Part shown: one piece after another, positions 14,227-37,569 of the stretch
Numbering within the stretch: position 1 is the stretch's first letter
Layout: every line of letters begins with the position of its first letter
Assembly (NCBI GenBank): GCA_040222015.1
Contig: JAVJWO010000040.1
Location: 32,001 to 96,000, forward strand
From: Coleofasciculus chthonoplastes F2-STO-03
Lineage (GTDB): Bacteria > Cyanobacteriota > Cyanobacteriia > Cyanobacteriales > Coleofasciculaceae
Reading direction: 5' to 3'
DNA length: 64,000 nucleotides
Notes under the pieces: generated by a model
What the model was told of the DNA's origin: nothing
The model's input: only the letters and a program-made list of their open reading frames with translations
The model's database searches: none
Translations under genes and position numbers: made by a program

Positions 14227-17200
14227 TCAACTGTGAGACTTTCCAGGGATTGACCAGCGCTTGATCCGACCAATGGTGACGGGCATATTCAGCGCCACAT
14301 CTAGGGTAAACCGGAAGACTCGCCGCGATCGCCGACCGTTTTCCGGGTCAAAGAAGATTAGTAATACATCCCAGCAATCGCTATTAATCCGGCAGTAGGG
14401 GCTTTTCTTCACCTCAATGGTGTCCAGTTGACGCTCAGAGGCGATCGCTTCGGCAAAGACGGAGGCGGATTGGAAGATGTTGGTGGCGGCGAAGTTGAGG
14501 GCGCGATCGCGTGAGGTTTGTCCCAGGTTACGCAAGTCGTGGTAGACGCGGTTCAGGAAGGCGCTCAAGGCTTCCCGGATTAGGGGTTCTTGGTCGGGGT
14601 CAAATCGGTTACTAATGGCGGCTAGGGCAGCGTTTACTAGGGCGTTGACGGTCCAACCATACATCCCGCGCACGTTATTTACGGTTACAACAGGCACGAC
14701 TTCCCCGGAAAAGAGTTCCACAGTGCGGGTGGTGCGGCGAGCGGGTAGACTGATCCGCTCCACAAAGCCATCGCTGGTGTCTGGCTCTAATTGCCCTGCT
14801 AACATCAGCAGGAAAACTTCGTAAATGTCGTCGGCAAAGGGTCCTTTGGGTTCTAAGACATAGATGGTGTTTTGATCCAGGTTGAGTGTCCAGATTAGGG
14901 AGCGCCGTTCGTCGGGGTAGCGATCTAGGTGTTCCAGCATTTGGCGCGGATCGTAGGGGTCTGGCGGTACCATGATGCCATCAATTTCGGCAGGTGCCAT
15001 TAGTTGCTTGAATGTATCGCGGCGGGCTTCGTCGCCAAAGTCGTAGCCCAGGGTGCCAAGGGCGTAAACGTTACCGGAAAAGGCGGTGCTGGCTTCAACA
15101 GTGGCGGGGTTGGCTAGTGCAGCATCGGAGTCAGCCGCCGCGATAACCGAGGCTTCTGTGGGTGTAGCGGGTTGTACGGCGGGGCTGGCGGGGGTGGGCA
15201 TGGCATAGCCAGGGCGTTGGGTGCGGGTTACTTGGTCGCCAGCAAAGGAAATCGTGACCGAGGGTTGACCAAATAGCACCTTCATCGCGCCAGAGATATT
15301 CACAAAGCCGCGTAAACAGCGATCGGGTTCTTCGACAACATCGGGGTCACAAGGAATGGCGGTGTTGAGGAGTGCCATGCGGACGGCTTCGGCATCGACG
15401 GGTTTGCCTTCTTGCAGTTGCAGACTCATCAGCAGGGCAGAAATCCCGGTCATTACTGGTGCAGCAATACTTGTACCCTTTTGGCGTACAGGTTCATCTG
15501 TGGCGGGTTGTGCACACAGAACATCCTCACCCGGAGTCATGATGCCCTCTTCTGCATAGTTACCACCCCAATTGCTATAGGGTTGGGGCATACCATCTTT
15601 TTTCATCGCTCCCACAGCCAGGGTTCCTGGTAGCACAGCGGGAATACACCAGCATTCGCCTTTATCGTTGCCAGCGGGAGCCACAATCAAGATGTTGTTG
15701 TCTTGACACTTTTTCACAGTTTGGACTAGGAGTTCTTCCCCTTTACCTGTTTGGGTAGGACGACAAGCGGCACAGTGAATAATGTTTGCCCCCAAATCCA
15801 GGGCTAACTCGAAGCTACGGGCAAGATTCAAAGGAGACATCATTTCCGAGCTGCCCATGCTGTTGATTGGTACATTAATCACTCGACAGTTGGGTGCCAA
15901 ACCGGGAGCTGGGGTGTGTTCCTGACCCACAATTACGCTGGTGACATGACAAGCATGGCGATCCATATAAATGCGGTCGGCAAGCGAGTCGGACAGAGCC
16001 GCTTCTAAAGCCGCCAGTTTAGCTTTGCCTTTCAAATCACTGTTATCGATTTCCCGGTATGTTGCGTGGTCTTCTGGAGAAATCGGCTCTGGAGTCTCAT
16101 GCCAATAGGGAAAAACCTTAGAGACTTCAGCACCCTCAAAACACGACAATGTATGGTCGGGGCTACCGTCCAAAATTACGATCGTGATGCGAGGATCACC
16201 CAGAGTTTGGTTGCGTAGGTTTACCAGTCCGGGAATGGAATTATCCAGGTCATGGGGGTGGAGTGCCACCGATATTTGGGTTGCAGAACTCTCAACCTCA
16301 CTTGCTAAGATAGCTGCCAATTCAATTTTATCTTCCCCACTATCTGATTCAATTTTATTCGCAAAAACATCTGAATTTATTGTTTCCACCGATTCTTCTA
16401 AAGCATCTATCTCAAAAGCCTGAGTGACAATTTCCTCAACTTGAATTAATGCCTTGTCAGACGCGCACACAGACTCTGTAGTATCTGTAGGTTGAGTTAA
16501 GGAGCGACACTCAACATCAGCAGGCTCAGGTTCCACTTCATCCTTATCAAATGCCTCTTCATTCACTGAATTTGACACCTCTGATGAGTCTACAGAAATA
16601 TCAAACTTAGTGTATGACTTAACCCTACTTGCGGCAACATCCCAGTTCAGTCTTGATCCCAACATAAACTCACCCACCGCCGACTCTTGCACATAGTCCA
16701 ACCTAGCTGCTCGCCCAAAACCATCACTATCTCCACTTCCCAGAGCACAGGGAGCCAGCCCCATATTCGTCGCGACTAAGTAAAGGTTGTACTGCAACAC
16801 CCCAACGTGTTTGAGTACTAACGCATAGGCAACGGAGCGATACTTGCGGAATAGCCGTCCAAACCGCGCCGTAATCACTAGAAGTACTTGTGGTTTTGGT
16901 TCATAGTAAACATAAGGTTCCAGAGCCAAGACATTCTCCGACTCAGCAATCTGCTCTAGTTGGTGATTCAGTGGGTCGTAATGATATAGCCCTTTGAGCA
17001 AACCTTCGCAATGTCGCACTACCAGATAAATCTCTAGCTCGTACATTGCTCCGGCACTAGGGTAGGGACGGCGTCTCGACTCACCATATTCAAAGTCAAG
17101 CTCCAAACCTGCTTGCCGTTTCCAATCATCACCAAACTTATCTTCAGGTCGGTAAATTTCTTTGACACGCGCCGTACGATAAAGCAGTTCACCTAATTGC

Positions 17201-18069
17201 TCAATCCTAATTGGATGCATTTCATCGTATTCTCGAATCGATTCCCTTGCTTCGATTGCTTCCGTTAGCTTGGCATCGTTGCACATCAACCCCTCTAGGC
17301 TCGGACGTGGCAGTGGTGTAATTTTGTGGCTCATGGGCGGCTTGATCACCGGAAAATCCGACCATTGGTCAATACAACGCTGGATATCCTCTCCTGGGTA
17401 GTCATGGCGACCCAAGCGGCTGCGGCTGTGGAAAAGCAAGTTATGGAAGTCCCAAAGCTGAAGCGAGGGGGATTCAGAGTCAACGCTTAGGAAGCCCGAT
17501 GCCCATAACAGGTCGAGAAACTGATAGGCTGTTTCCGGTCCCAGATAGGGAGGAGGAGTTAATCTGGCTAGAAACTGGGGCTGGGCGAGTTGGGCTATTA
17601 GCGCACTAGCCCGCCAGTCGAGAAGTTTTACCCGAAACGGCGAAAGTGGGGATTCCAGCACCATCGCATTTTCGTAGGAATGCTGGTAGGCAAAGCGCGA
17701 GAGGCTCACACTTGAATGTGTCCAAGCAGGTTCGATCAGGTTAAGCTTGGCAGTTTGTACCATCGGGATCGCTACGGCTAGCGGCAATACCGCATAACAT
17801 AGCCAACCTCGTTCTTCTAGCTGTTGCAACGTCACTGCGAACTGCTCCCCAGCAGCCTTACCTTCTCGTTCTGCTAGGGCTTGCACCAGTGCTTCGGCAG
17901 TGGTACGACCTTCCTGAAGGTGTTTGAGAGCGTTGCTAAGTCCAGGGGTTGTGGCAAGGTTCAGCAAGGCAGTCGAAGTTAGCCCTCTCGCCGCTAGGGT
18001 ATATTGGTCTTCAGACGTTGTGATTTCAATAGCAGGGTTGAGAGAAATGGCAAAGGGGTAGATGATCAT
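14227..18069 (-). CDS. patG: cyanobactin PatG: FMN-dependent azoline oxidase + subtilisin-like macrocyclase + PatA/G C-terminal domain
   Basis: Oxidase motifs RESIREY, RPYPSAGAMYELE; protease triad ILDG / HACH / GTSIAAP; helical insert YWHETPEPISPED...LEAA; C-terminal YALGTLGYDFGDEARRD, KSPYCRINSDCW. Confidence 0.95.
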   Translation of the reverse strand: MIIYPFAISLNPAIEITTSEDQYTLAARGLTSTALLNLATTPGLSNALKHLQEGRTTAEALVQALAEREGKAAGEQFAVTLQQLEERGWLCYAVLPLAVAIPMVQTAKLNLIEPAWTHSSVSLSRFAYQHSYENAMVLESPLSPFRVKLLDWRASALIAQLAQPQFLARLTPPPYLGPETAYQFLDLLWASGFLSVDSESPSLQLWDFHNLLFHSRSRLGRHDYPGEDIQRCIDQWSDFPVIKPPMSHKITPLPRPSLEGLMCNDAKLTEAIEARESIREYDEMHPIRIEQLGELLYRTARVKEIYRPEDKFGDDWKRQAGLELDFEYGESRRRPYPSAGAMYELEIYLVVRHCEGLLKGLYHYDPLNHQLEQIAESENVLALEPYVYYEPKPQVLLVITARFGRLFRKYRSVAYALVLKHVGVLQYNLYLVATNMGLAPCALGSGDSDGFGRAARLDYVQESAVGEFMLGSRLNWDVAASRVKSYTKFDISVDSSEVSNSVNEEAFDKDEVEPEPADVECRSLTQPTDTTESVCASDKALIQVEEIVTQAFEIDALEESVETINSDVFANKIESDSGEDKIELAAILASEVESSATQISVALHPHDLDNSIPGLVNLRNQTLGDPRITIVILDGSPDHTLSCFEGAEVSKVFPYWHETPEPISPEDHATYREIDNSDLKGKAKLAALEAALSDSLADRIYMDRHACHVTSVIVGQEHTPAPGLAPNCRVINVPINSMGSSEMMSPLNLARSFELALDLGANIIHCAACRPTQTGKGEELLVQTVKKCQDNNILIVAPAGNDKGECWCIPAVLPGTLAVGAMKKDGMPQPYSNWGGNYAEEGIMTPGEDVLCAQPATDEPVRQKGTSIAAPVMTGISALLMSLQLQEGKPVDAEAVRMALLNTAIPCDPDVVEEPDRCLRGFVNISGAMKVLFGQPSVTISFAGDQVTRTQRPGYAMPTPASPAVQPATPTEASVIAAADSDAALANPATVEASTAFSGNVYALGTLGYDFGDEARRDTFKQLMAPAEIDGIMVPPDPYDPRQMLEHLDRYPDERRSLIWTLNLDQNTIYVLEPKGPFADDIYEVFLLMLAGQLEPDTSDGFVERISLPARRTTRTVELFSGEVVPVVTVNNVRGMYGWTVNALVNAALAAISNRFDPDQEPLIREALSAFLNRVYHDLRNLGQTSRDRALNFAATNIFQSASVFAEAIASERQLDTIEVKKSPYCRINSDCWDVLLIFFDPENGRRSRRVFRFTLDVALNMPVTIGRIKRWSIPGKSHS

Positions 18070-18125
18070 AGTTATGAATTTTGTTAAATCAATTCCTCAT
18101 TTGCATAACATTTCGTTAAATTTTT

Positions 18126-19073
18126 TCACAAAATCTTGATGCTATGCCTTGATTTATCTAGTTGGGTGTAGTAAAATCTAAATTCATTTAAGCAATTGTT
18201 CTCCGTTTCTCGCTCAGTAACACCTACCCAAGTGAATGCATTAGCCTCTTGATTTTTGCAAAAGGAATAGATTCTGTTACCCAAATCGTTAAAGGAAAAA
18301 TAATTAGGAATATATTCGATTTCCTTAAAACCAAAATATAAAACTGGCTCTAAATTTGCCTTAGAGAAGCCCACATTAAGAAGGTCTGAAGCCTCAAAGA
18401 TGGAAACAATTTTTTTTGTAAATTTTTTTCGTATGTAAGGTCTTAAGCATCTTCCCCAATTACCCCGAAGTTCATGTTTGCCTCCCGGAGTAGTAGCATA
18501 TAGCTCTATATAGCTACGACCATCCAAGAAAAAATCAAATCCGATCAGTGTTACACTTTTTAACAGAATTTCTGTCAATTCAGCTGAGTAGTGACCCCCA
18601 TCAAGAGTGAGCGCTGTCCTCACCAGCTCTTCAGGATTTTCCTCTCTATTGATATGAATGTGTATTTTTACACTGGAGTCCTCAAGTTTCGGGTGTAAAT
18701 CGATTCCTACAGTATTGCCAACAATTTTTTTAGACTCAATATGTATGGCTAAGAAACGCTGAAGCAAGTCGCGGTTAATTTCAACACCTATCCGAGTTTC
18801 GATTCGATCTAAAAACTGTAGAGCTTGTACCAAAGATTTTGGCCAGGTATGTACTAGCTCACCACGAGCTGCAAAACGCCCTGCGAATAACCGATTGCCT
18901 TCAACTTTGCAAGAGGCTTCAATACCACAAGGGTATTCTATTTCAAGAACTACTTCCTCAAAAATCTTGATAGGAAATGTTGGTTCTACATCAAAAACAT
19001 TTTGATGGGTACGCATAAACTGGAGACGACGCTCTCGCAGCTGATGATATTGTAGTATGGAAGTTATGGTCAC
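18126..19073 (-). CDS. cyanobactin PatF/TruF/LynF-family ABBA prenyltransferase
   Basis: RLQFMRTHQNVFDVEP, IEASCK, GIDL...SSVKIH, IGFDFFLDGRSYIELY, FRFYY. Confidence 0.9.
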   Translation of the reverse strand: MTITSILQYHQLRERRLQFMRTHQNVFDVEPTFPIKIFEEVVLEIEYPCGIEASCKVEGNRLFAGRFAARGELVHTWPKSLVQALQFLDRIETRIGVEINRDLLQRFLAIHIESKKIVGNTVGIDLHPKLEDSSVKIHIHINREENPEELVRTALTLDGGHYSAELTEILLKSVTLIGFDFFLDGRSYIELYATTPGGKHELRGNWGRCLRPYIRKKFTKKIVSIFEASDLLNVGFSKANLEPVLYFGFKEIEYIPNYFSFNDLGNRIYSFCKNQEANAFTWVGVTERETENNCLNEFRFYYTQLDKSRHSIKIL

Positions 19074-19182
19074 AATTTCATTTCCTCACGAGAAATATAT
19101 TCACATTAATTTGATGAAGTATAAAAAACCGTGGTTAGGTTGTTACGGCTGATTCCTGCTTGAAATTCTTTTGAAATATAAA

Positions 19183-20124
19183 CTATCCCACATAATGTTG
19201 ACATTGATCGCGTTTATTATATGAAAAACTGAAATTTTCCAATCTATAACTGTTTAACTCTCGCTCCTTGAAAGTTAAGGCAGCGTAATTCACACAATCC
19301 TGACTTATAACAAAATCGTAAATTCTATTTCCCAAGCTGTTGAACAAAACATATTTTTTCAGGTCTCTAATATTTCTAACATGGACAGATAAACTTGGTT
19401 CCACTTTTGTCCTAGGAAAATGAATGATCAAAAATAAGGAAGCTTCAAATAGGGATATGACTTTTTTAGAAAAGTGTTTCTGAATATAAGGCGTCAAATA
19501 TATTCCTCGATTTCTGGGGAAATCTTTCCCTTGACCTCCTGGAGAGCCAGACCAAAGTTCCACATCGCTGCGACCATTCAAAAAAAGATTGAATCCAATC
19601 AAAACCGTATCTTTAAGCAGTACCTGTAATAATTCAGGCGAGTAGCTACCACCATCAAGTGTGAGGGCTGTCCTTACTAACTCTTCCGGATCTTCTGCCA
19701 ATTCAAGATGCATATATATTTTAATGCAAGAATTCTCAATTTTTGGTCGCAAGTCAATTCCTATTGTGTTATTTGTAATTTTGTGAGAGCCAATATGAAC
19801 TTCTACAAACTGCTGTAGCAAATCACGATTAAGTTTAATGCCCACTCTACTTTCAACTTTATTCAATAATTTTACAGCATCGTTTAAGGAACTAGGCCAG
19901 GTATGCTCTTCATGAGAAACCTGATAATCTGTAGCAAAAAGCTGATCGCCTTCAACATGGCAAGTCGGTTCAACACCACAAGCGCCTTCCATACTTTGAA
20001 CGGCTTCTTCAAAGAGAGAGAGAATAAAGATTGGTTCTAAATCGAAAGCATCTTGATGGATACGCATAAACTGGAGACGATGCTCTCGCAAATTGTTTTG
20101 TTTAAATATACGAGTTAGATTCAT
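19183..20124 (-). CDS. second PatF/TruF-family prenyltransferase-like protein (divergent active-site motifs)
   Basis: RLQFMRIHQDAFDLEP, GIDLRPKIENSCIKIY, IGFNLFLNGRSDVELW; clear paralog of the neighbouring ORF. Confidence 0.88.
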   Translation of the reverse strand: MNLTRIFKQNNLREHRLQFMRIHQDAFDLEPIFILSLFEEAVQSMEGACGVEPTCHVEGDQLFATDYQVSHEEHTWPSSLNDAVKLLNKVESRVGIKLNRDLLQQFVEVHIGSHKITNNTIGIDLRPKIENSCIKIYMHLELAEDPEELVRTALTLDGGSYSPELLQVLLKDTVLIGFNLFLNGRSDVELWSGSPGGQGKDFPRNRGIYLTPYIQKHFSKKVISLFEASLFLIIHFPRTKVEPSLSVHVRNIRDLKKYVLFNSLGNRIYDFVISQDCVNYAALTFKERELNSYRLENFSFSYNKRDQCQHYVG

Positions 20125-20585
20125 AAGATATTCTTGTTTCAAAGAGTAAGTTGAATTTACGCGATCTAGTGGGAACTATTTTATTGAGTTACAGTTTATA
20201 GTCACAGAAAATTCTCGCTAAAGGCATGAGATACATTTTTAACCTAAAGAAGGCGAGGTAGATGAGATAACTGCATAGTTTTATGTATGTTTTAGTTTAC
20301 CTCAAGCCTCGCCTTTAGAGTAAAGCCTAGATAAAACTTCAGTGTTCAGACAGTTAACCACTGTGCAACCGAGACAAATAGACTTCACCTACAGCAAATA
20401 TACTGCACGAAGGCATCAACTGAGTTTTTTCACCAGCTTGCTTTTTTACGTTTTATTTTCCAGCACTCTGTTTGAGTTTTTTCCGTCTAGAAATTAAGGA
20501 AAACGCCAAAGCGCACCTCACGCAGTATAAGTATATTAGAGTGCAGATGCTTCTACACCTAATCGTCAGATGCTTCTACACCTAA

Positions 20586-20801
20586 TCAATCATCATAGGA
20601 GCAGGCACAAGTAGGAGCACACATGGATGCACCTACGCCATCATCATAGGAGCAGGCACAAGTAGGAGCACAAATAGATGCACCTACACCACTACCACCT
20701 AGAGCTTCCTCACAGAGTTCAGCCAAGTGGCTGGGGAGTTTACCATTGGTGCTGCGGATCACGGGTTTGCCTTGTTGGGGCAGAATGTTTTTCTTGTCCA
20801 T
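20586..20801 (-). CDS. patE: cyanobactin precursor PatE-type (71 aa) with cores ICAPTCAC and MCAPTCAC
   Basis: Leader MDKKNILPQQGKPVIR...LAELCEEAL, RSII GVGAS, RSIII SYDD, GAGG RBS upstream of the ATG at 20801. Confidence 0.95.
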   Translation of the reverse strand: MDKKNILPQQGKPVIRSTNGKLPSHLAELCEEALGGSGVGASICAPTCACSYDDGVGASMCAPTCACSYDD

Positions 20802-20929
20802 TGGACTAATCCTCATATTGTTGTTTACTTTGTTAACCCGTTGGGGTGGGTTAGTCCCCTTCCACCTTGCGGCGAAGCTTGTTAGTTGGCACCTGGTTTG
20901 AAGAGAATTATGAGTTGCCAATCAAATTC

Positions 20930-21352
20930 TTAAATATCTGGTGGATGCCAATTTTCAGCCACCCAAATTTGGCGTGATCCGATCGCATAGTCGTTGTTGA
21001 CTTTTAGAGCAGAGACAGTGGCTCGACCAACTGCGGTCAATCCCTTAATTTGTGTACCTTCCTCTATCCAGGCAAAATGTTCAGCCCAAACCTGTTTCCG
21101 GGGATGAAACAGGGTGACAAGTTTTCCTGTTTGGGGGTCAATCCCTTGAGTCTTGGCTCCTTTAAACAGATTGCAGCGATAGCATGAAGCCGCCAGATTA
21201 GCGCGATCGCTACTTCCGCCTAGAGCGCGAGGAATAATGTGGTCAATCACAAGTGGCATTCCGATTAAACATTGTTGGGTTTGACAATATTCGCAACATT
21301 CCTGGGCTTGCGAAATCACCTGTTGACGAATCCCTGGAGAGACAAAGGACAT
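20930..21352 (-). CDS. HNH endonuclease
   Basis: CCEYC, IDHIIPRALGG, NLAASCYRCN, LFHPR...W.EHF. Confidence 0.9.
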   Translation of the reverse strand: MSFVSPGIRQQVISQAQECCEYCQTQQCLIGMPLVIDHIIPRALGGSSDRANLAASCYRCNLFKGAKTQGIDPQTGKLVTLFHPRKQVWAEHFAWIEEGTQIKGLTAVGRATVSALKVNNDYAIGSRQIWVAENWHPPDI

Positions 21353-21355
21353 GGG

Positions 21356-21769
21356 TTAGTTGCCAGAGAGTTGGCTCAAATCGCGGATGGGCTGCCCTCG
21401 CCACCGTAAGATGGCACAGGCATGAGCTTTTTTGAGCATGAATCGATCCGCAGCTTGGGAGAGTTCCTGCAATTCTTGATGCTCGGCTTCTGAGAGTAAG
21501 CCCTCCTGATTGCGTTCTAGCAGGGTGATATGGCGTTCCTGTTGCTCCACAGGAATCTGGCTTTGGGCAATTTGCCGCAGAGCTTCAACGCTCAGAGTTG
21601 GCAGGGTTAACAGTTCACTCCGAGCTTCAACCGGAGCCGTTTCAATCGCCGGGGGTAAATTGCCGGTGATACTTTGAATCACCAGATAGGACAACGGTTG
21701 GTTGGTCAGTTCTGCCAGTCGAGATAGGCGTTCAAAGGCAGATTCAGGCAGGTCGATGGTAAGTTGCAT
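21356..21769 (-). CDS. RHH/CopG-like protein, putative antitoxin partner of the HNH gene
   Basis: N-terminal MQLTIDLPESAFERLSRLAELTNQP; ends 3 nt upstream of the HNH start. Confidence 0.65.
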   Translation of the reverse strand: MQLTIDLPESAFERLSRLAELTNQPLSYLVIQSITGNLPPAIETAPVEARSELLTLPTLSVEALRQIAQSQIPVEQQERHITLLERNQEGLLSEAEHQELQELSQAADRFMLKKAHACAILRWRGQPIRDLSQLSGN

Positions 21770-21781
21770 GATGATGTTGAT

Positions 21782-22274
21782 TTATGTCAAAGACAACTTA
21801 TTAGACAACTTGTAAAATTTCTGGAGTTGGCAGAGGCTTTCCTGTTTGCCTGTAGCCATTGGCTTTGGCAATAGTGGATGTATCCAAGATGTATCCAATA
21901 GGAATCTTACTTTTGGTCGGGATCTGGAAAACCTCTCTCCAAACCTCTCTCCTGCAAGGAGAGAGGCTTTGAATTCTCCCCCTTCCGTGGAACAAAAGCG
22001 AAGCATCCTCTGTCCTCCCCCCGTGCAAAAAAAGCGAAGCATCCTCTGTCCTCCCCCCTCTTGTAGGGGGGAATGAGGGGGGTTGGGGGGAATGAGGGGG
22101 GTTGGGGGGAATGAGGGGGGTTGGGAAGGGGGCTGGGGGGAAAGGGTTTGATATCGATTTTTCTAGATGGCGTGAAAAGTCAGAATAGGAATGGCTACCT
22201 TTACCACGTTTTGGTAAGAGTGTAAACCCAGCTTGTTGAAACATTTGCTTTAGCTCCCTGATTGTCTTAGGCAT
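21782..22274 (-). pseudogene. hicA: HicA-type toxin pseudogene interrupted by a MITE
   Basis: MPKTIRELKQMFQQAGFTLLPKRGKGSHSY | WIHPLLPKP once the insertion and an 11-bp duplication are removed; GKGSH motif. Confidence 0.8.
21906..22183. mobile_element. 278-bp MITE with 9-bp target-site duplication AATAGGAAT
   Basis: Ends CTTACTTTT...AAAAGTCAG; AATAGGAAT at 21897-21905 and 22184-22192; internal G-rich and AAAAGCGAAGCATCCTCTGTCCTCCCCC repeats. Confidence 0.85.
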
Positions 22275-22289
22275 TTCACAAACTAGCTC

Positions 22290-24620
22290 TTAAAATGGCA
22301 TCGGTGTCGGGTTCATCTGCGCCTCAGTGAGCGGTTCATCCCGCCACCCCAGCTTCACTGGCACATCATAGAGCCGCCCTGCCCCAAACCGTGACCAAAA
22401 ATGGCGCATCTCTGGCACAATCACCTTAACCACATTTAAACCAATGTCTGGTCGGGTTTGATCCAGCACCAAGGTTTCTAGCCCCGCTTGCTGGGCAATC
22501 TCCACACAGGCGAGTACCTCGGCGTAAATATCATCTCCCCAAAGCTTGGGGTAATCCTGGGCAGTCTTCAGGGGTTGCTTGGCATCAGGAACCAGATAGG
22601 GATGATCCGCCAACTTCGCATTCAGTAACCAATCCGCTGCATCGCTTTTCAGGTTCTCATCTGGCACCTTGTCCAGTTCCAAACCCAGTTGATTCACCTC
22701 TGTCAGGGCGCGAAGGATGGCAATCGTGGGGTCAAGGTGCGCTCCAAAGCCGAGAATCAGCCGTTCCGAGGTTCCAGTCTGCCGATTCGACACGCCGACA
22801 AACGCGGGAATGCCTAAATCTGCCGTCAAATCCAGCACCCACAACTCTCGGTCATGGTCCCGGTAGTACCGCTGCAACGCCTGGAAATACGGCTCATCAA
22901 AGCTGCTCAAATCCACCGCTGGACGGCTCAGGCGGTTGTACCACCACAGCGCCACACTGTCGCGCTCCACCAGTTCCAGAAACCCTTGCAGGATTGCCTC
23001 TTCCAAGGTGTTCCCCGCCGCATTACCGTTGGAGTCACCTCGGCAGAAGCGGTGTGCTGGGGGCAAGGGGTAATGGTAGTAGCACATTGCCGTGGGTAAA
23101 TACTTATGCGTCTGCTGCGTGAGGGACCACATTGGCGTCCAATCAATCGCCTGACTCGGAGCAAACCGTTGAGGAATCCAATCATGAGCCACCGTTGCCT
23201 GCTCATTCAGGGTGTCCCGATTGGCATATTGCGCTTCACTAAAGCACAAACACCGCTGCGGATGAATCGCCAAGTCTTCCAGTTCCGCCAAGGTAGCCCG
23301 TCTCCGGGGTTCATCCCCCTGAAAGATACCGGAATAGCGCTCCACCGCCTCACACAACCCACTCGCCCGGGATTGGCTATCGGTTTTGCCTTTACCGGAA
23401 CTCTTGTGTTTCAAGGTATTCCGTAGCCCCCGCAGGGAGGTGGAACTACCAAAACTATGCCCCGCTTTGTAGGTATGCACCAAGGGATTCGCGGGGTCAG
23501 AAATCCGCACCAGTTCCGTTACCACCCCCGTCACTGGACTAATGAGATGCTGATATTTCTGCACCGTCTGTTCTGGGGTAGTAGCACGATGACCGCCATC
23601 CTGGGTGAACTGCTTGGGACGCGACTCCAGGTTCAGCCGCTCAAACCCCCGCCGTTGCAAGAGTTGCGGGTTACCACAGGTGGGACATTGAGGACGCCGG
23701 ATCAGGGCATGGGTTTTCAAATCCGGGAGCATCTGGTTGAACGTGATAATCTTGCCCTCTAGGGTGGGGAAAAACACTGTTCCCGATGTCGTGGTATTGA
23801 TATAGTGCTTAACCACCCACTTAGCAATCTCCGTCGCCGCCAACTGTAACCCGGTTTGCTGAGTTGAGGGCAGCGTCGCCCGTGCTGTGGGAAAGCAACC
23901 CAGCATCCCCTGCCCATTCTCACCATTGCGCTGCTGCTGTTCCTGTTTTTGCCGCAACACCGACGACTCCACTTCCCGGTTCCCCCGGAGGGGATGGGCA
24001 AGACAGTGCCAACACCCCGTCTTCCCCGGCACAAATACCGGACCCAGCCACAGCACACTACCCACCGGCTTCACCAGTAACCAAGGTTGCTGACGCTCTA
24101 AAGCTTGCTGGTTAATCGTCGCCAGTTCCGGTTGCAAATAGTCATCGGTTAAGACAACATTCAGCGCCGTTGGCGAATCCGCGTCGGGAGGTGCCACGGA
24201 AATGCCCACGTCCCCCAGAGCAGCTTTCAGGGCTGCCACCGTCACCTCACTAATCCCCTGACCCACCGTTGTCAGCGTCACCGACTGCTGTAGCCCCTGG
24301 GCTGCCACGGGGGGGGCAATCCCTAACTCACTCCAGAATGCCGCCACGTCTGAAGATAGCTCTGGCGCCGCTTCGGTGAGATACCCCTTCTCTGCCAAGC
24401 GATTTAGCACATAGTCGATGTAGTCTGGGGGGACTTCCCCATCCAGCTTTTCGACAATCTGCTCTAGGGTGTATTGCCCATTTAACAGGGGCAGAATCTG
24501 GCAGTAGAGTTGTCCGGTGAGGGCGTGGTTGCCCTGTTCACCCAGGAGATACACCTGCTTCGGCTCGATGATCTCCACATGGAAGTGGGGCTTAATTTGG
24601 GGCAGTGTCGTGGATTCCAT
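22290..24620 (-). CDS. patD: cyanobactin heterocyclase (RRE + E1-like + YcaO), PatD/TruD/LynD family
   Basis: QIKPHFHVEIIEPKQVYLLGE, SSGKGKTDSQSRASGLCEAVER, SNGNAAGNTLEEA, C-terminal PTPMPF. Confidence 0.97.
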   Translation of the reverse strand: MESTTLPQIKPHFHVEIIEPKQVYLLGEQGNHALTGQLYCQILPLLNGQYTLEQIVEKLDGEVPPDYIDYVLNRLAEKGYLTEAAPELSSDVAAFWSELGIAPPVAAQGLQQSVTLTTVGQGISEVTVAALKAALGDVGISVAPPDADSPTALNVVLTDDYLQPELATINQQALERQQPWLLVKPVGSVLWLGPVFVPGKTGCWHCLAHPLRGNREVESSVLRQKQEQQQRNGENGQGMLGCFPTARATLPSTQQTGLQLAATEIAKWVVKHYINTTTSGTVFFPTLEGKIITFNQMLPDLKTHALIRRPQCPTCGNPQLLQRRGFERLNLESRPKQFTQDGGHRATTPEQTVQKYQHLISPVTGVVTELVRISDPANPLVHTYKAGHSFGSSTSLRGLRNTLKHKSSGKGKTDSQSRASGLCEAVERYSGIFQGDEPRRRATLAELEDLAIHPQRCLCFSEAQYANRDTLNEQATVAHDWIPQRFAPSQAIDWTPMWSLTQQTHKYLPTAMCYYHYPLPPAHRFCRGDSNGNAAGNTLEEAILQGFLELVERDSVALWWYNRLSRPAVDLSSFDEPYFQALQRYYRDHDRELWVLDLTADLGIPAFVGVSNRQTGTSERLILGFGAHLDPTIAILRALTEVNQLGLELDKVPDENLKSDAADWLLNAKLADHPYLVPDAKQPLKTAQDYPKLWGDDIYAEVLACVEIAQQAGLETLVLDQTRPDIGLNVVKVIVPEMRHFWSRFGAGRLYDVPVKLGWRDEPLTEAQMNPTPMPF

Positions 24621-24652
24621 AGCGCGAACAGTCGGTGATTAAGTGTGAGTGC

Positions 24653-24679
24653 AAGAAGGCAGAAGGCAGAAGGCAGAAG
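24653..24679. repeat. STRR (AGAAGGC)n
   Basis: Read directly. Confidence 0.8.
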
Positions 24680-24685
24680 GTGGGG

Positions 24686-24927
24686 CGGACTTTTCACAGT
24701 ATGTAGCCCAATGTGAGTGTGAATTGTGTAGGGGCGGGTTTCACCACTCTCTTTTCGGTTGCAACTAGATGTAACTAAACCCGCCCCGACTCAGGTTTTG
24801 AGTCTCTATCTGTAGGGTGTGTTAGCGTAACGCACCATTGCCACTAAACCCGCCCCGACGCGCCATGGCGCGTCTCTACAGATGCCGCGTCTCTACAATA
24901 GTTTTTAGGCGTCCCGTGAAAAGTCAA
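24686..24927. mobile_element. MITE-like element between patC and patD carrying nested REP palindromes
   Basis: Ends CGGACTTTTCAC...GTGAAAAGTCAA; interior similar to 84-241. Confidence 0.65.
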
Positions 24928-24932
24928 GACGA

Positions 24933-25148
24933 TTAAGCCCAGATACGCCCCCGACGGAAAGACTTGGATTTGCTCCCAGATTTTTTTGCCTCCTCCCGGG
25001 CGTAGTCCCACCAATAGGAGTAGTCTTGTAGCCCAGTCATCGACGTCGGCACGTAGGACTTTGGGGGTTCAGGCGTAGGCGTCTCGTTAGCTGGAGGGGC
25101 GTCTGACGCCTTATCTTCAGAGTTTTGGCTGCTCGATTTCTTGCTCAT
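24933..25148 (-). CDS. patC: PatC-type protein from an internal start (71 aa)
   Basis: AAGGAG-N6-ATG directly before MSKKSS; PatC motifs. Confidence 0.75.
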   Translation of the reverse strand: MSKKSSSQNSEDKASDAPPANETPTPEPPKSYVPTSMTGLQDYSYWWDYAREEAKKSGSKSKSFRRGRIWA

Positions 25149-25808
25149 GTTAATCTCCTTATAATAAATAGGGGTCTGGCTACCACAAATAATTTGCTCA
25201 AGAACTGCCGCAAAATTTGTTGGCGCATCCACAGCGGCGAAAAACTGTCCCTGGGTTTCAGCCGCAACTCTGGCATATTCTGGCTGAATAGTGTCACGGT
25301 GCTTGCTTTTGGACATACCCAAATAGGTATGAACTCGAACGTGAGAAGCTTGGGCGCTTTGAATTGCTAAATTCGCCGCCTCAATATCCGCTGCCTCAGT
25401 TTTGCCACCACCGCCTTCCAGGGCTTCATCACCCAGATAAAATAGGGAACGATAAGCTTGCTCTCGCCAATCGAAATGGTTTGAGACATCTTCAATAGCA
25501 CGAGCAGCATCTTCTTGAGCACCCGCTGAGGGAAGTTCACCTCGCTTGCGCCCCCGCAGTTTAGCCTCAGCCACTCCACAGTCTTTTGTGAGGTAAGTTC
25601 GCAGCGTGCGCTTAAATGCCGTCCCGCGCCATCGCCCCTCAATCCCCAGCCAAACCACCCGCAAATCCGCCGGACAGTTCGCCTCGGCTGCGGTAATCGC
25701 GGCTGCCACCGCATCACTGACGGCATTGGCAACATCTTTCATCGAAGGACTTGTATCCATCAGGATCACCAAATCAACGAGTGGTATTGTGCTAGCAGAA
25801 TTACTCAT
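24933..25808 (-). CDS. vWA (MIDAS) domain protein fused in frame to cyanobactin PatC
   Basis: DLVILMDTSPSM (DxSxS), EDAARAI, FYLGDEA; C-terminal TGLQDYSYWW...FRRGRIWA is PatC/TenC/TruC-like; no stop between the two parts. Confidence 0.85.
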   Translation of the reverse strand: MSNSASTIPLVDLVILMDTSPSMKDVANAVSDAVAAAITAAEANCPADLRVVWLGIEGRWRGTAFKRTLRTYLTKDCGVAEAKLRGRKRGELPSAGAQEDAARAIEDVSNHFDWREQAYRSLFYLGDEALEGGGGKTEAADIEAANLAIQSAQASHVRVHTYLGMSKSKHRDTIQPEYARVAAETQGQFFAAVDAPTNFAAVLEQIICGSQTPIYYKEINMSKKSSSQNSEDKASDAPPANETPTPEPPKSYVPTSMTGLQDYSYWWDYAREEAKKSGSKSKSFRRGRIWA

Positions 25809-25851
25809 AGGGATACTGACGTCACCTTTACTTCTCAAACCATTGACCGAA

Positions 25852-26088
25852 TTAAAAGAAGCTTCCCATGCCGCCAAAGCCACCCCAACCCTGGCTAGCA
25901 CTTGAGTGCATCACTTGGTTAAAACTGCGGTTGGCATAGGCGGACGGATCGTTATAGTTAGCGCCATGGAGCAAATCCATGCGAATATGCACCAAATCTT
26001 CGAGCCGACCATTTTCCACATCCACGCATAGTGCTGGCTGGACGAAATGGGGTCGTTTGACCGGGGGAGACAATACAGGTAGTCGCAT
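25852..26088 (-). CDS. patB: cyanobactin PatB/AcyB family protein
   Basis: MRLPVLSPPVKRPHFVQP...LVHIRMDLLHGANYNDP. Confidence 0.92.
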   Translation of the reverse strand: MRLPVLSPPVKRPHFVQPALCVDVENGRLEDLVHIRMDLLHGANYNDPSAYANRSFNQVMHSSASQGWGGFGGMGSFF

Positions 26089-26214
26089 TGTTGAAAATCC
26101 TCCACAATTAACGTATAGAGTGAACAGGGGTGTCGGGTTAGGTGTTCATTGTCGGGACACAGCACTACCGTGCCTGTACAACTATCCCAACCCTGACCCC
26201 AATTTGGCTGTCCC

Positions 26215-28212
26215 TTAGTAAGGGGAAGACCAGGAACGGACTTCGCCCAAGGTAACCGGAACCAGGTCACTCACATCAATCGTAAATCGGAAAATCTTCT
26301 TGGCACGACGATTATTTTCCGGGTCGAAGAATTTCAGCTTCACATCCCAACAGTCGCTATCCATACGACAGAAGGGACTTTTCTCCACGGTGATGCTATC
26401 GAGTTCCATCCCCACCGCAACCGCTTGGCTGAAGGTTTGCGCCGCTTGGAAGGCGTTGGTAACCGCGAAGTTAAGGGCGCGGTCTTGAGACGTAGTACCC
26501 AAGTTGCGGAGGTCGTAGTAGATGCGGTTGAGGAATCCATCCAACGTCTGACGGATACGACCTTCATCCGCTGTTGTTTCCTCAGTTTGTACGGCTTCCA
26601 TCGCCGCACTCACCAAGTTGTTCACCTTCCAGCCGTAGATGCCCCGGGTTCCCAGGGGTTCAATCACGGGGATAACTTGACCGGAGAAGAGCTTAACCGT
26701 GCGCTTGGTTAAAATACCCGGAATACTGACGCGCTCCACGTATTCAGCATCATTTTCGGCTTGGATTTGACCCGCCAAAAGTTCCTGCAGGGCGCGGTAG
26801 GCATCGACGGCAAAGGGACCCGTGGGCGCGATCGCATAAACTGGAGTCAGTTCAACATTGAGCGTCCAAATCAGCGATCGCGATTCCGACATATTATCTC
26901 CCAGATAGTCCACCATCTGGCGGGCATCATAGGGGTTTGCCGGCACCATCGTCCCCTGAAAGTCAAAGGGCGGCATCAGTTGCTTAAACGAGTCCCGACG
27001 GGCTTCTGAGCCGAAATCATAACCCAGAGTTCCCAAAACATAGACAATTTCACCGAGAGAGGGGATCTCGCTGGGGGCTTCGCTGGCGGTAACGGAATGA
27101 GCAGTAAGATTGGGCATAGTGGGCATAGCAGGGGGTTGGGGTACAGAATTCATCAGGTTTTGCAGGTTGGGACTGTTCGTGGGCATTGCCCCTGGGGGTG
27201 AAGACGGGGCGGACTCAGCGCTTGGCGCTTCTGTCCCACTGGTCAACCCCCCCACACACCCGCAACCTGCGCCTTCCACGCCTGCTTCATCAACGGTGGC
27301 TGCATCAACGGCTGATGCAAGTTCCTCTGACATAGTTCCTCCTGTTAGTAACGTTACAGCTCCAGATATGTTGAGTTTGCCCGCCAGACACCGCTGGGCA
27401 TCAGCGGGCAGGTCAAAGTCACAGGGCAATGCACTCTGCAACAACACTTGACGCACTCTTTGGGGGTCAGGGATTTCCCCCCGTTCCCGTTGCAGACTCA
27501 GCAGCAGCGCCGCCACCCCCGACACAATCGGCGTGGCAAAGCTCGTACCACTCAGCGTCTGAGTTCCCCCACCGGGTTTTGCCCCCAAGACATCCTTGCC
27601 GAGGGCAAGAATGCCTTGAGTCTTATAGGTGTCACCCCAGTTACTAAAGTCCAAGGGCTTGCCGTTGGCATCCATGGCGCCAACAGCCAGGGCAGCGGGC
27701 AGGGCAGCCGGGACATGGAGACATTCGCAGCCATTGTTACCCGCCGCCGCAATCAGCAAAACATTCTGCTGCTCACATAAGCGCACCGCATTCTCCAGCC
27801 AGCCGTCGGCTTCCCCAAAATCCGTGAGTTGACCGCCACTGATGTTGATAACGTGCGCTCCGGCGTTCACTGCCCGCTCAATGCCCCGCGCCAAGTCTAA
27901 CTGGGATACACGGCGGCGATTATCGGAAAAGATGGGAACAATCACCCCTTGGCATTGCGGTGCAATCCCCGTCACCGGACTCCCCGGTTGACCCAAAATA
28001 ATGCTGGAAACATGGGTGCCGTGAACCGACATATTACCATCCGGACGAGCCTCCTCATTCACCAGAGACGGCAAGCGCGTCAGGGTTTTGCCGACAAAGC
28101 AAGGATGGGTTTGGTCAACCGGTCCATCCAACACGGCAATGCAAATATCCTTGTCACCCTGGGTCATCGCCATCAACTCCGGCAATGCAGGTATCGCCAA
28201 AACAGCAGACAT
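26215..28212 (-). CDS. patA: cyanobactin N-terminal protease PatA (S8) with C-terminal domain
   Basis: IAVLDG, HGTHV, GTSFATP; C-terminal LGYDFGSEARRD, KSPFCRMDSDCW. Confidence 0.96.
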   Translation of the reverse strand: MSAVLAIPALPELMAMTQGDKDICIAVLDGPVDQTHPCFVGKTLTRLPSLVNEEARPDGNMSVHGTHVSSIILGQPGSPVTGIAPQCQGVIVPIFSDNRRRVSQLDLARGIERAVNAGAHVINISGGQLTDFGEADGWLENAVRLCEQQNVLLIAAAGNNGCECLHVPAALPAALAVGAMDANGKPLDFSNWGDTYKTQGILALGKDVLGAKPGGGTQTLSGTSFATPIVSGVAALLLSLQRERGEIPDPQRVRQVLLQSALPCDFDLPADAQRCLAGKLNISGAVTLLTGGTMSEELASAVDAATVDEAGVEGAGCGCVGGLTSGTEAPSAESAPSSPPGAMPTNSPNLQNLMNSVPQPPAMPTMPNLTAHSVTASEAPSEIPSLGEIVYVLGTLGYDFGSEARRDSFKQLMPPFDFQGTMVPANPYDARQMVDYLGDNMSESRSLIWTLNVELTPVYAIAPTGPFAVDAYRALQELLAGQIQAENDAEYVERVSIPGILTKRTVKLFSGQVIPVIEPLGTRGIYGWKVNNLVSAAMEAVQTEETTADEGRIRQTLDGFLNRIYYDLRNLGTTSQDRALNFAVTNAFQAAQTFSQAVAVGMELDSITVEKSPFCRMDSDCWDVKLKFFDPENNRRAKKIFRFTIDVSDLVPVTLGEVRSWSSPY

Positions 28213-33129: not shown

Positions 33130-35238
33130 TTAAATTCCGATAACTAATTCCCAGCTTTTAAGTTTCCCGGTATCCGTCGGCACAGAATCGATAACCCTCA
33201 ACTGCCAATTCCCAAAACTATCCTGATTCAGCAACGACTTGAGTGCAGGGGTATTGTCTACGGAATAAGTGTATTGGAGTTGAGTATTGACACCCAATGT
33301 CCGGCTTTGTAACAACGCCGCCTGACCATTGGGTGATGTTAACTCCACGTCCAAATCTCCCAAAAACTCATGTTCAATATCCACCGTCACCTGAATATCT
33401 TGCACTAAACCAGATTCTGTAATTTGAATCGTGCTAGTCACACCACGGGGATTATCATCGGGAATAGCTAAAGTGTTATCATTTCGTCGTTTAATGACTT
33501 GGGTGACTTTAGCCGTTTGCACTCGTTGTTTTTGGGCAGCTTGTACAGCCTTAAATGCATTGACCTTACCATAACCAAACCATTGGGAATACCCATTCGT
33601 ATCATAGGTTCCCAATCGCATCCCCAGTTGGGGGTCAGCATCACGGTCTACAATTTTATCAGCGGTATCTTGCAAGATGCGTTTCACTTGTGCCGCCGTC
33701 AGATCTGGATTAGCGGAGAGAACCAGTGCAGCAACACCTGCAACAACGGGACAGGCACTTGATGTGCCACCAAAACTCTGCACAAAATCCCCAACTTCAT
33801 ATCCCGCCGCTCCCAGTAAATCTGTGGTAAAGATACCATGACCTGGTGTGGGGGCATTCAATTGGGGAGCCGTACCAATAAAGCCTGTTTTCTCAAACCA
33901 TATTCCTGGCGGCGCATTGTTGCTGGGGGCGCAAACTGCGACATTCGTCCCCCAATTACTGTATGCCGCTTTTTTCCTCAGGCTGGTGCAAGCCGAAACC
34001 GCAATCAAATCTGGATGTACGGCGAAACCACTGAGCCAGTTGGTGGGTCCGTGCAGTAACTCATTTGTCCAACCACGCTCAAAGATGGTGCCATGGATTG
34101 GGCGATTGGCATTTCCGGCGGCAAAGACGATCACACAGCCTTTCCCGCCGCGCCCCTCAGTCGCCGCACGGGTTAGGGCAGCCCGTTGCCGTAGGGAGAG
34201 GGGGAAGTAAACGGTTGCCGCACCCCAGCTACAAGAAACGACGCTGGCGTCATTTTCAATTGCCCAGTCAAATAATTCTTCAACACTCGTGTCATCCAGA
34301 AACCCACTGGTGCGAATGGGCATTAGCGCACATCCGGGTGCGACACCGACAATACCCTGACCATTTTCTTCAGCCACGGCAATCCCTGCACAAGCGGTGC
34401 CATGACTTTCACCAGAACCACTGGGTAGCGGAATGAAGTCTTTGTCTTTAAAGTCTTTGGGCGCGACAATTTTTCCGGTGCCTTGAAAATCAGGATGATT
34501 GACATCAATGGCATCATCGGCTATGGCGACAACAATAGAACGATCGCCTCGGGTAATATCCCAGGCTTTTTCGATGTCGATATGAGAATTGGGGGCTAAT
34601 TTTGTACCGCCGCTATGGTTGAGATACCACTGTTGAGGGTATAAGGAGTCTTGGGGATGGTAGCTCGGCTGTTTGGGGACAATGATCTGGGGTTCTGCGG
34701 TTAAGACTTGGGGACGTGTGATCAGTCGATTGGCTATTTTGAGCGGATTCTCTGGGGAATTCGGGGTGAGTTGAAAGATAAAGGTGTTGGGAATACCAAT
34801 GAGCGATCGCACGGATTTTAAGCCAAATTCGGTCTCAATGGCGGAGATTGTGGCGTCATCGGTGTCTGGGTGAAATTGAATCGTCAGTTGATCGCCCAGG
34901 TAAATTAAGGTGGCTGGATTGTCCTTGAGTTGGTAAACATGACTAGCAAAGACAACCTCTTCGCGATCGCGTGCCGCTTGCATCACCTCATCCCGTTGTT
35001 CGGCGTCAACCGTAAATTCAACGAGCTGGGTGCGGGCAATTTGGCGCTGGTGTTGAACCCTTAAAGTTTGTTCGAGTTGCTCGACGGGGATTTCAGGGGA
35101 GCGCATAGTGAAGCGATCGCGCACCTTGAGTAATCCTAGTTCTTCACCGCCCCGTTGCAAGAGCAGACCCATGCTTTCTTCGGGAATCGGCGTGGTTTGA
35201 GGAGAATCATCTGGCACAGAATCAGGATGCGGGATCAT
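33130..35238 (-). CDS. S8 subtilisin/kexin-like serine peptidase with proprotein convertase P-domain
   Basis: AIADD, HGTACAG, AAGN, GGTSSACP; C-terminal IEHEFLGDL...GNWQLRVID. Confidence 0.92.
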   Translation of the reverse strand: MIPHPDSVPDDSPQTTPIPEESMGLLLQRGGEELGLLKVRDRFTMRSPEIPVEQLEQTLRVQHQRQIARTQLVEFTVDAEQRDEVMQAARDREEVVFASHVYQLKDNPATLIYLGDQLTIQFHPDTDDATISAIETEFGLKSVRSLIGIPNTFIFQLTPNSPENPLKIANRLITRPQVLTAEPQIIVPKQPSYHPQDSLYPQQWYLNHSGGTKLAPNSHIDIEKAWDITRGDRSIVVAIADDAIDVNHPDFQGTGKIVAPKDFKDKDFIPLPSGSGESHGTACAGIAVAEENGQGIVGVAPGCALMPIRTSGFLDDTSVEELFDWAIENDASVVSCSWGAATVYFPLSLRQRAALTRAATEGRGGKGCVIVFAAGNANRPIHGTIFERGWTNELLHGPTNWLSGFAVHPDLIAVSACTSLRKKAAYSNWGTNVAVCAPSNNAPPGIWFEKTGFIGTAPQLNAPTPGHGIFTTDLLGAAGYEVGDFVQSFGGTSSACPVVAGVAALVLSANPDLTAAQVKRILQDTADKIVDRDADPQLGMRLGTYDTNGYSQWFGYGKVNAFKAVQAAQKQRVQTAKVTQVIKRRNDNTLAIPDDNPRGVTSTIQITESGLVQDIQVTVDIEHEFLGDLDVELTSPNGQAALLQSRTLGVNTQLQYTYSVDNTPALKSLLNQDSFGNWQLRVIDSVPTDTGKLKSWELVIGI

Positions 35239-36160: not shown

Positions 36161-37569
36161 GTAGCCGCGAAAGTCCTCACCCTCAACGAAGTAGGGTGAG
36201 GATGGACAGCGGGAACCCTTCGACTCCGCTCAGGGTTAAATTGAGGAACGAAATTTCCCATCTTCCGGAAGAACTTACCCTAAATAGTATATACTGGTAA
36301 GAGGATGTGAAAACAATGCGACATCAAGCCGTCAAAGTGAGGCTATACCCGACAACTGAACAGCAAGTAATATTAGCCCAACACTTTGGTTGTAGCCGTT
36401 GGTGGTGGAATTATGCACTTAATTTGTGTATTGAAACTTACCAGGCAACGAATAAAGGTTTGACTCGTTCCGCATTGAATGCACTCTTGCCTAAGCTCAA
36501 GAAACAGGAGGAAACCGAGTGGTTATCTGAATGTTATTCTCAAGTCTTGCAATCTACCACACTAAATCTAGTAACTGCCTATAAAAATTTCTTTGAAGGT
36601 AGAGCTAGATACCCAAGGTTTAAGGCTAAAAGGAATAGGCAATCTATTCAGTATCCCCAATCGGTTAAGATTGCTGATGGTTGCCTTAAGTTTCCCGGTC
36701 GTGTTGGCGTAGTTAAAGCTAAAATACATCGATCAATTGAAGGAACTATCAAGACGGTAACAGTCAGCATGACCCCATCGGGTAAATATTTTGCTTCTGT
36801 GTTGATGGAACTAGAAGGAGATAATCCACCGACTAACACCGATGGCAAGGTAGCGGGAATTGATTTGGGGTTAAAGGATTTCGCTATCGTTAACGATGGG
36901 GTCAAGACCTCTAAGTTTGCTAACCCTAATCATTTAGCCAAACATGAACGCAACTTAGCCAACAAACAACGGAGATTAGCCAGAAAGGAGAAAGGAAGTA
37001 ACTCAAGAAATAAAGCCAGAAAACTGGTAGCTAGGGTTCACGAACGAGTTAGTAATGTCCGCCAAGACTACTTGCATAAGCTATCCAGAAAGCTGGTTGA
37101 CGAAAACCAAGTTATCGTAGTCGAAAGTCTAAATACTAAGGGCATGGTTCGTAACCACAAACTAGCCAAAGCAATTTCTGATGTAGGCTGGGGAATGTTT
37201 GTCAATTTCCTATCATACAAGCTCGAAAAAGAAGGCAAGGTATTGGTAGAGATTGATCGCTGGTTTCCTAGTTCTAAACTCTGCTCAAACTGCCATTATC
37301 AGGTAGCTGAAATGCCGCTAGAGGTTAGGGAATGGACTTGCCCTAGCTGTGGTATACATCATGATAGAGACGGCAACGCCTCAGCAAACATTAGAGCAGA
37401 AGGCATCAGAATGCTTCGACAGGCTCAGCAACATCTATCGGTCTCAGGGACTGGGACTGCTGCTGATGGAGGGGATGTGAGACCGAAGCTTGGACGTAAG
37501 TCTAAGTTGACGCAATCCCCTGTGAAATCAGAAGCTCAGGCTTCTACGAAGTAAGCCTGAGTAGTTCAC
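36161..37569 (+). mobile_element. IS200/IS605-family (IS1341-type, tnpB-only) element
   Basis: Left hairpin CTCACCCTCAACGAAGTAGGGTGAG and right hairpin CTCAGGCTTCTACGAAGTAAGCCTGAG share an ACGAAGTA loop; right end ...GTAGTTCAC; left boundary approximate. Confidence 0.8.
36307..37554 (+). CDS. tnpB: RNA-guided endonuclease TnpB
   Basis: HTH KVRLYPT, RuvC GIDLG / VVESL / HDRDGNA, zinc finger CSNC...CPSC. Confidence 0.95.

Follow-up and report, generated by a model that had tools for sequence, protein, structure and literature searches.

Judged by sequence comparison, the conserved part of the cyanobactin protein PatC is a C-terminal tag of 31-35 residues that is carried on interchangeable sugar- or protein-binding domains. 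The example described here lies in a 64,000-nucleotide stretch of Coleofasciculus chthonoplastes F2-STO-03 DNA (the window, to which coordinates without a prefix refer), where a domain with a von Willebrand factor A (vWA) fold runs in frame into PatC. Since vWA is one minority passenger among several, the finding concerns PatC more than the vWA domain. We propose that through the tag a variable binding module docks on orphan proteins of the pathway, namely PatB and/or the C-terminal domain of PatA and PatG, and we give this reading a probability of roughly 0.45. Our grounds are a motif that is short and strictly terminal, comes after a linker, sits on binding folds unrelated to one another, is copied along with each passenger and is all but limited to the pathway.

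The fused reading frame and its vWA domain

As the original prediction stated, the patB-patD interval holds a single minus-strand frame without a stop (25808-24933, 291 codons) that encodes a vWA-fold domain, a linker and PatC, the last matched by NCBIfam TIGR04447 at residues 258-291 (57.2 bits against a cut-off of 30). A GTG inside patB is an alternative upstream start that would give 322 residues, and the starts of homologues align with the ATG at 25808. The cluster is complete, in the order patA-B-C-D, three unrelated ORFs, E-F-F-G (Table 1). The same open frame and the same junction are found in a metagenome contig that is 95% identical (L093). Contigs from two sequencing runs also cross the fusion free of gaps, one spanning 24851-26600 with 26 differing letters (X1, possibly related to the source sample) and the other 24933-26042 with 55 (X2; 40 of the X1 and X2 differences are listed), so that no stop or frameshift precedes position 25148. 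Contigs from RNA libraries span patB, the vWA part and patC as well, and as contigs are uninformative on transcription, its level and its starts. A promoter and terminator scan found sites no commoner than in shuffled sequence and none within the fusion ORF, and neither the vWA domain nor the tag has a paralogue elsewhere in this genome.

Table 1. Features of the fused gene and its cluster in the window
Feature	Position	Strand	Basis
vWA-linker-PatC fusion ORF, 291 aa	24933..25808	-	same open frame in L093; fusion in 28 other homologue clusters
Predicted vWA-fold domain, integrin beta I-like type, residues 10-212	25173..25781	-	AlphaFold pLDDT >90; VIA-align; Foldseek
MIDAS motif D18-x-S20-x-S22	25743..25757	-	D18 and S20 invariant in 29/29 fusions
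Low-complexity disordered linker, residues 213-257	25038..25172	-	pLDDT 49-56
Internal Shine-Dalgarno AAGGAG, in frame (Lys-Glu), 6 nt before ATG 25148	25155..25160	-	background 0.14%; kept in same-genus vWA-less relatives
Possible free PatC, 71 aa, from internal start (putative translation)	24933..25148	-	sequence comparison
PatC tag: TGL-x-DY-xx-W, predicted helix 261-276, FRRGRIW end	24933..25037	-	TIGR04447; alignment of 73 tags
patB, 78 aa; candidate tag partner	25852..26088	-	TIGR04220
patA, protease with C-terminal PatG_D/PatG_C domain; candidate tag partner	26215..28212	-	family profile matches
patD, heterocyclase (YcaO)	22290..24620	-	family profile matches
Remaining cluster: patE precursor, two patF, patG (oxidase-protease-C-terminal domain)	14227..20921	-	family profile matches

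One of the two origins first offered for the fusion was an inserted vWA gene that had lost its stop. The strong ribosome-binding site and ATG that survive at the PatC start would fit such a recent accident, or an error in the sequence, but the fusion recurs in 28 other homologue clusters down to 45% identity, the frame is open in L093 and in the X1 and X2 contigs, and a free patC from the same genus still has the last vWA codons upstream of it and hence derives from a fusion. On these grounds we rule out accident and sequence error alike, and their chance is negligible. A run of 124 nt without substitutions across the junction in the comparison with L093 (P about 0.003 under random placement) was discounted as evidence, because a run of 102 nt occurs elsewhere and the substitutions are clustered.

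The AlphaFold model of the fusion, built from 97 sequences, is confident for residues 10-212 (pLDDT >90), disordered for 213-257 and ends in one helix at 261-276. In this model the N-terminal domain is of the vWA (Rossmann-like) fold: VIA-align superposes it on 4fx5 with Z 12.6 and rmsd 3.6 over 163 aligned residues (3ibs and 6fpy tied), the best Foldseek matches are integrin beta I-like domains, integrin beta3 first, and its neighbours in the Atlas structures are vWA. The fold was thus predicted rightly and the length of about 220 residues was not, the domain taking up about 203 (10-212) and the larger figure including the beginning of the linker. With the vWA superfamily (4fx5, 3ibs BatB, Mfa5, integrin beta3 and beta8) the domain shares fold and DxSxS motif; unlike those comparators it has neither signal peptide nor anchor and falls below the Pfam vWA cut-offs. 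No Pfam family matched the N-terminal domain at E<=0.001, nor at E<=0.1, every Pfam vWA cut-off included, and its relatives have sub-threshold Pfam vWA matches only. A sequence search of solved structures returned no match at E<=1 with the fusion profile and only non-significant matches with a deeper one. The domain belongs instead to a family of its own, with 212 representatives at 50% clustering and no solved member detectable by sequence.

Across the 29 fusions, MIDAS position 22 is split between Ser (14 fusions) and Thr (14), with Gly in the remaining one, while E99 is kept in 29/29 and D127 in 27/29. E99 and D127 may be the two distal metal-site ligands, as suggested by a non-significant alignment with integrin beta8, whose WR..A.R....D segment aligns with the vWA domain. 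Measured against L093, the vWA part has a dN/dS of 0.19 and the tag one of 0.18 (0.76 for the linker, which has few sites); by this comparison the vWA part is under purifying selection.

Several features of the neighbouring DNA may be set beside these results. The precursor encoded at 20586-20801 (minus strand) has a pair of cores (ICAPTCAC and MCAPTCAC), SYDD coming after each, and the cluster has two PatF prenyltransferases. The patD-patE interval (20930-22274, minus strand) holds a repeat-broken short start, presumably HicA-like but without a family match, followed by an ORF of 137 aa and one for an HNH nuclease. At least one of these last two ORFs adjoins patE in L093, L145, L151 and L165 as well. 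Palindromic repeats of the GTAGGGGCGGGTTT / AAACCCGCCCC type and short heptamer repeats occupy the patC-patD interval (24650-24930). The patA-patB spacer (26092-26186) is swapped for another sequence of similar length in L093 and in runs X2 and X5, both genes being 95% alike. Upstream of the cluster lie a further subtilase with a P-domain (33130-35238, minus strand) and an IS200/IS605 TnpB gene (36307-37554, plus strand).

The PatC tag and its passengers

At 291 residues the frame lacks the shortness associated with PatC, but shortness is no true feature of the family, because the deposited TenC (ACA04482.1, 241 aa) is also long and itself consists of a CBM-like domain and the tag. TIGR04447 models 34 positions only, and is labelled a domain. 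A PatC profile retrieved 271 proteins of 141-2000 residues, of which 120 are listed. Among these 120 of the 271, the passengers are of the TenC type in 49, LamG alone in 51 (40 with one LamG, 11 with two) and vWA in 11, the rarer ones being transthyretin-like (3), jacalin (1) and mixed stacks (5); CVNH is present in some of the LamG stacks. The TenC-type domain resembles a carbohydrate-binding jelly roll, aligning with domain III of rhamnogalacturonan lyase at Z 13.9 and rmsd 2.4 over 134 residues (next Z 9.7), and a Lyngbya PCC 8106 protein of 279 aa (EAW34314.1) is LamG-PatC. In 119 of the 120 listed long proteins the motif starts 31-35 residues from the C-terminus; its invariant residues are G, W, R and R. 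The suggestion that PatC is a tag is thereby borne out in so far as it behaves like one, staying C-terminal on unrelated modules. All passengers among the 120 are binding folds, and none is catalytic.

The tag keeps close to the genes of its pathway. Among 82 tag ORFs from loci that were fetched (less four duplicate loci, although a few duplicates remain), a pat gene is found within 4 kb of 76, and in 60 the gene immediately before is patB. This bears on a different reading of the tag, as a localisation or export signal read outside the pathway, at the membrane, the envelope or a transporter, that would bring leaderless passengers of lectin or adhesin type to the surface, made together with the cyanobactin. 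All the passengers are binding folds typical of surface proteins, yet a crude hydropathy scan found no signal-peptide-like N-terminus in the 120 listed proteins (a hydrophobic stretch within the first 40 residues of seven belongs to vWA strand 1 or to a PatA fragment), and a strictly C-terminal, basic-aromatic end would suit membrane binding. The near confinement of the tag to cyanobactin loci, with a single copy in this genome, speaks against export because a general sorting signal would be expected on many unrelated genes; moreover, the stretch from patA to patG in this cluster has no recognisable transporter gene. The fusion matched no Pfam or NCBIfam sorting-signal domain (PEP-CTERM, LPXTG, T9SS tail). 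We consider an export signal unlikely.

Within the clusters, tagged genes may be multiplied. One locus has three LamG-tag genes in a row (L141), another two (L142), and a third a free tag beside a transthyretin-like fusion (L150). In four loci a tagged gene stands right after a second protease gene (L094, L153, L154, L155), and two of these (L154, L155) have three PatA/G-type protease genes and two PatC-tag genes per cluster. One further protein (P0315) carries the first 76 residues of a PatA protease in frame with LamG-PatC and is probably a deletion product.

The vWA-PatC combination recurs. The PatC motif ends 29 of the best 120 of the 212 homologue clusters, this fusion included, at 45-65% identity. 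Such fusions are deposited for Phormidium FACHB-1136, Rivularia PCC 7116 and Microcystis, and where DNA context is available they follow patB (L002, L055, L063, L093, L100, L105) or, in L094, directly follow a patG-type gene. With the dN/dS of the vWA part, this recurrence favours the other origin offered at the outset, an accessory component, and shows it to be conserved. The expectation that vWA genes would be linked to other cyanobactin clusters was likewise upheld, linkage being repeated both as fusions and as an unfused tandem vWA-vWA gene (about 550 aa; L047:7182-8879) that directly follows a free patC in L047, L050, L051, L068, L069, L166 and L168. In a quick tree of 119 vWA domains the tagged ones form three starred clades and one singleton, each with its own tag subtype; we claim no convergent origin, because an AU test (LG+G4) does not reject a single tagged clade (p 0.479).

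Most of the vWA family lies away from these clusters. At 99 of 119 loci (duplicates included; flanks of 1.5-8 kb) there is no pat gene, and outside cyanobactin loci the fusion partners are propellers, patatin, Tle1-like, OmpA, PA-IL, CBM6, RCC1, PKD and DUF697 domains. The vWA domain may for this reason be merely a promiscuous module, or may itself be a targeting module. This unnamed, leaderless family (L003-L062; P0121-P0256) has varied C-terminal fusions in cyanobacteria, myxobacteria and enterobacteria, its partners including beta-propellers, in proteins of 1,100-1,900 aa, and a nuclease/phosphatase-like domain. A plasmid search for the vWA domain found two distant Proteus matches only.

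Possible internal start and passenger loss

The original prediction further proposed two isoforms, vWA-PatC and free PatC, the latter from an AAGGAG (25160-25155) six nucleotides ahead of the ATG at 25148, a signal that we find as described. In this genome AAGGAG lies 4-12 nt upstream of 0.14% of 21,931 internal in-frame ATGs, and of 1.9% of the 3,163 first ATGs of long ORFs. Two relatives of the same genus retain PatC with the vWA part gone. In one (G481) a deletion of 325 nt frameshifts the vWA part and leaves the ribosome-binding site and PatC intact. In the other (G454) repeat DNA, of the type found in the patC-patD interval of the window, takes the place of the vWA body, while the last vWA codons, the ribosome-binding site and an intact PatC of 73 residues remain; because those codons persist upstream, this free PatC derives from a fusion. 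Run X5 skips the same 325 nt as G481, beside an intact allele (24 letters on the short side). An internal start in this lineage, read from such comparisons, is credible.

As a general design, two isoforms fare less well. Among 33 fused genes with DNA (the window and L093 left out), the linker Met is preceded by GGAG or better in 7, by AGGA only in 5 and by neither in 9, and 12 have no Met. GGAG or better is found in 4/6 vWA fusions, against a background of 2.1%, and in 30/43 free genes. At the protein level, 22 of the 29 vWA fusions keep an aligned Met, one is unclear and six have none, and because of these six we regard the second isoform as optional. In three loci a Met-less fused gene is the only PatC found (L144, L145, L146).

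Free tags are common and passengers can be lost. In a sample of 401 genomes from the order, with at most six tag candidates scored per genome, we found 81 tag matches in 69 genomes. Of these matches 31 lie in frames of at least 170 aa, one of them broken, and 50 in short passenger-free frames; three intact long frames carry vWA, this genome included. We count at least five losses of the passenger (L151, L165, L169, L172, L176), and in the last three of these a decayed TenC-type or LamG passenger precedes an intact PatC. Some loci are simply decaying, because there are also broken tags (L157, L081, L170 and the second copy in L175) and, in L183, a LamG-tag remnant with no pat genes in 18 kb.

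Such losses, with the tag left intact, invite the view that free PatC alone matters and that promiscuous binding domains land in frame upstream of it, act independently of the tag, and come and go. The deleted allele beside the intact one in X5, the unfused tandem-vWA gene after free patC in seven loci and the predominance of free tags in the 401-genome sample would all agree with this. Met-less fusions, on the other hand, cannot make free PatC, every tandem copy retains its own tag, and only binding folds occur on the tag among the 120 listed proteins, though the vWA family is often fused to enzymes elsewhere. We therefore think mere hitch-hiking of the passengers quite improbable.

Candidate partners and the possible role of the tag

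In the docking reading that we prefer, the functional unit of PatC would be its last 31-35 residues, a helix and the basic-aromatic FRRGRIW end, which would attach whatever lies upstream to PatB and/or to the C-terminal domain common to PatA and PatG. The upstream part would be a swappable, non-catalytic binding module (vWA, CBM-like, LamG, jacalin, CVNH or transthyretin-like) through which the cyanobactin machinery, or else its product, would be anchored to a target, either protein or glycan, a vWA passenger adding metal-dependent binding to a protein or surface ligand. Where the internal ribosome-binding site is used, as it may be in this lineage, the tag would also be made without its passenger, whose loss would then be tolerated. 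We weigh against docking that 50/81 tags are passenger-free, that passengers were lost at least five times, that the vWA family lies mostly outside pat loci, and that patellamide is made in E. coli without PatB and PatC (PMC2854353).

Over 24 loci, similarity between tags follows that between PatB proteins (rho 0.63, partial 0.39) and between PatA C-terminal domains (0.57, partial 0.24), and to a lesser degree that between protease domains (0.49, partial -0.02), a weak sign, the pairs being non-independent and the genes linked. Published work reports that the PatG domain binds neither the precursor nor the heterocyclised precursor (PMC4259220), which leaves room for another ligand. Additional information comes from one genus (g157), in which an intact patB-patC pair stands with no patA or patG within about 9 kb (L184:9096-9811, L185:9082-9656); PatG_C genes occur elsewhere in four of its five genomes, and the fifth (G647, 98% complete) has no PatG_C match. 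This arrangement fits PatB as a partner, and does not fit an obligate PatA/G partner, as far as gene content can tell.

The protease domains themselves enter in a further alternative, by which PatC and PatB are substrates or regulators of the PatA and PatG proteases, the tag occupying the active site or being cut so as to free the passenger. That each protease gene often comes with one tagged gene, and that a long unstructured linker precedes the tag, would suit a substrate; the linker, however, has no conserved cleavage-site motif and shrinks to 9-18 aa in some cases (its range across the fusions runs from 9 aa to more than 80), and in the weak test above tag similarity has no partial correlation with the protease domain. 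The odds of this reading are in our estimate low.

Docking by a terminal peptide has a precedent in encapsulins: their cargo proteins, unrelated to one another and encoded next to the receptor, carry a short conserved cargo-loading peptide at one terminus, beyond a flexible linker. By analogy, the PatC tag is likewise short, terminal, placed after a linker and found on unrelated passengers beside a presumed receptor. Unlike encapsulin cargo, the passengers of PatC are binding modules and not enzymes, and the receptor is here only presumed; no encapsulin shell gene is present among the 26 ORFs scanned around the cluster, from 9.4 to 39.7 kb.

With PatC, TenC and TruC (TIGR04447) the fusion shares the tag sequence and the place after patB in a patA-G cluster. 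The accessible text of reviews treats B and C as conserved short proteins with no function assigned (PMC4663559) that are non-essential (PMC4663559, PMC2854353), PirC of PCC 7005 having 73 aa (PMC3428304); the function is elsewhere called unknown (PMC6162287), and a short form has been termed a 'truncated' tenC (PMC4558948). N-terminal domains, their interchange and an internal start are absent from the descriptions of PatC, TenC and TruC that we found, within their accessible parts. Searches of the open literature gave nothing related, by listing, for cyanobactin with von Willebrand and nothing for cyanobactin with LamG. No description of PatC passenger domains was found in the open literature, and supplements, subscription papers and the original cluster descriptions may mention long forms. 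LamG-PatC and VWFA-PatC already appear in database names, so that as far as we searched these architectures are on record and seemingly uninterpreted within the open literature.

PatB, PatC and the C-terminal domain of PatA and PatG occur in nearly all cyanobactin pathways and have been without a function for about 20 years (PMC4663559, PMC4259220), and, as noted, E. coli can produce patellamide without PatB and PatC (PMC2854353). We can speculate that PatB and the PatA/PatG C-terminal domains form the receptor or assembly part of a targeting arm, onto which lectin- or adhesin-like heads would be loaded interchangeably by the PatC tag; the internal start would determine what proportion of tags is loaded and what proportion empty. 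We hold this larger picture to be tentative and on balance doubtful; if true, it would explain three conserved orphans together with their dispensability for peptide synthesis in E. coli. With PatC seen as a tag of 34 residues, a long-open question of function becomes testable with a short peptide and three candidate partners, and if the tag docks, those who engineer this widely used biosynthetic system would gain a portable handle. Moreover, a variable glycan- or protein-recognition module suggests that cyanobactin clusters do more than make peptides, which bears on their ecological role.
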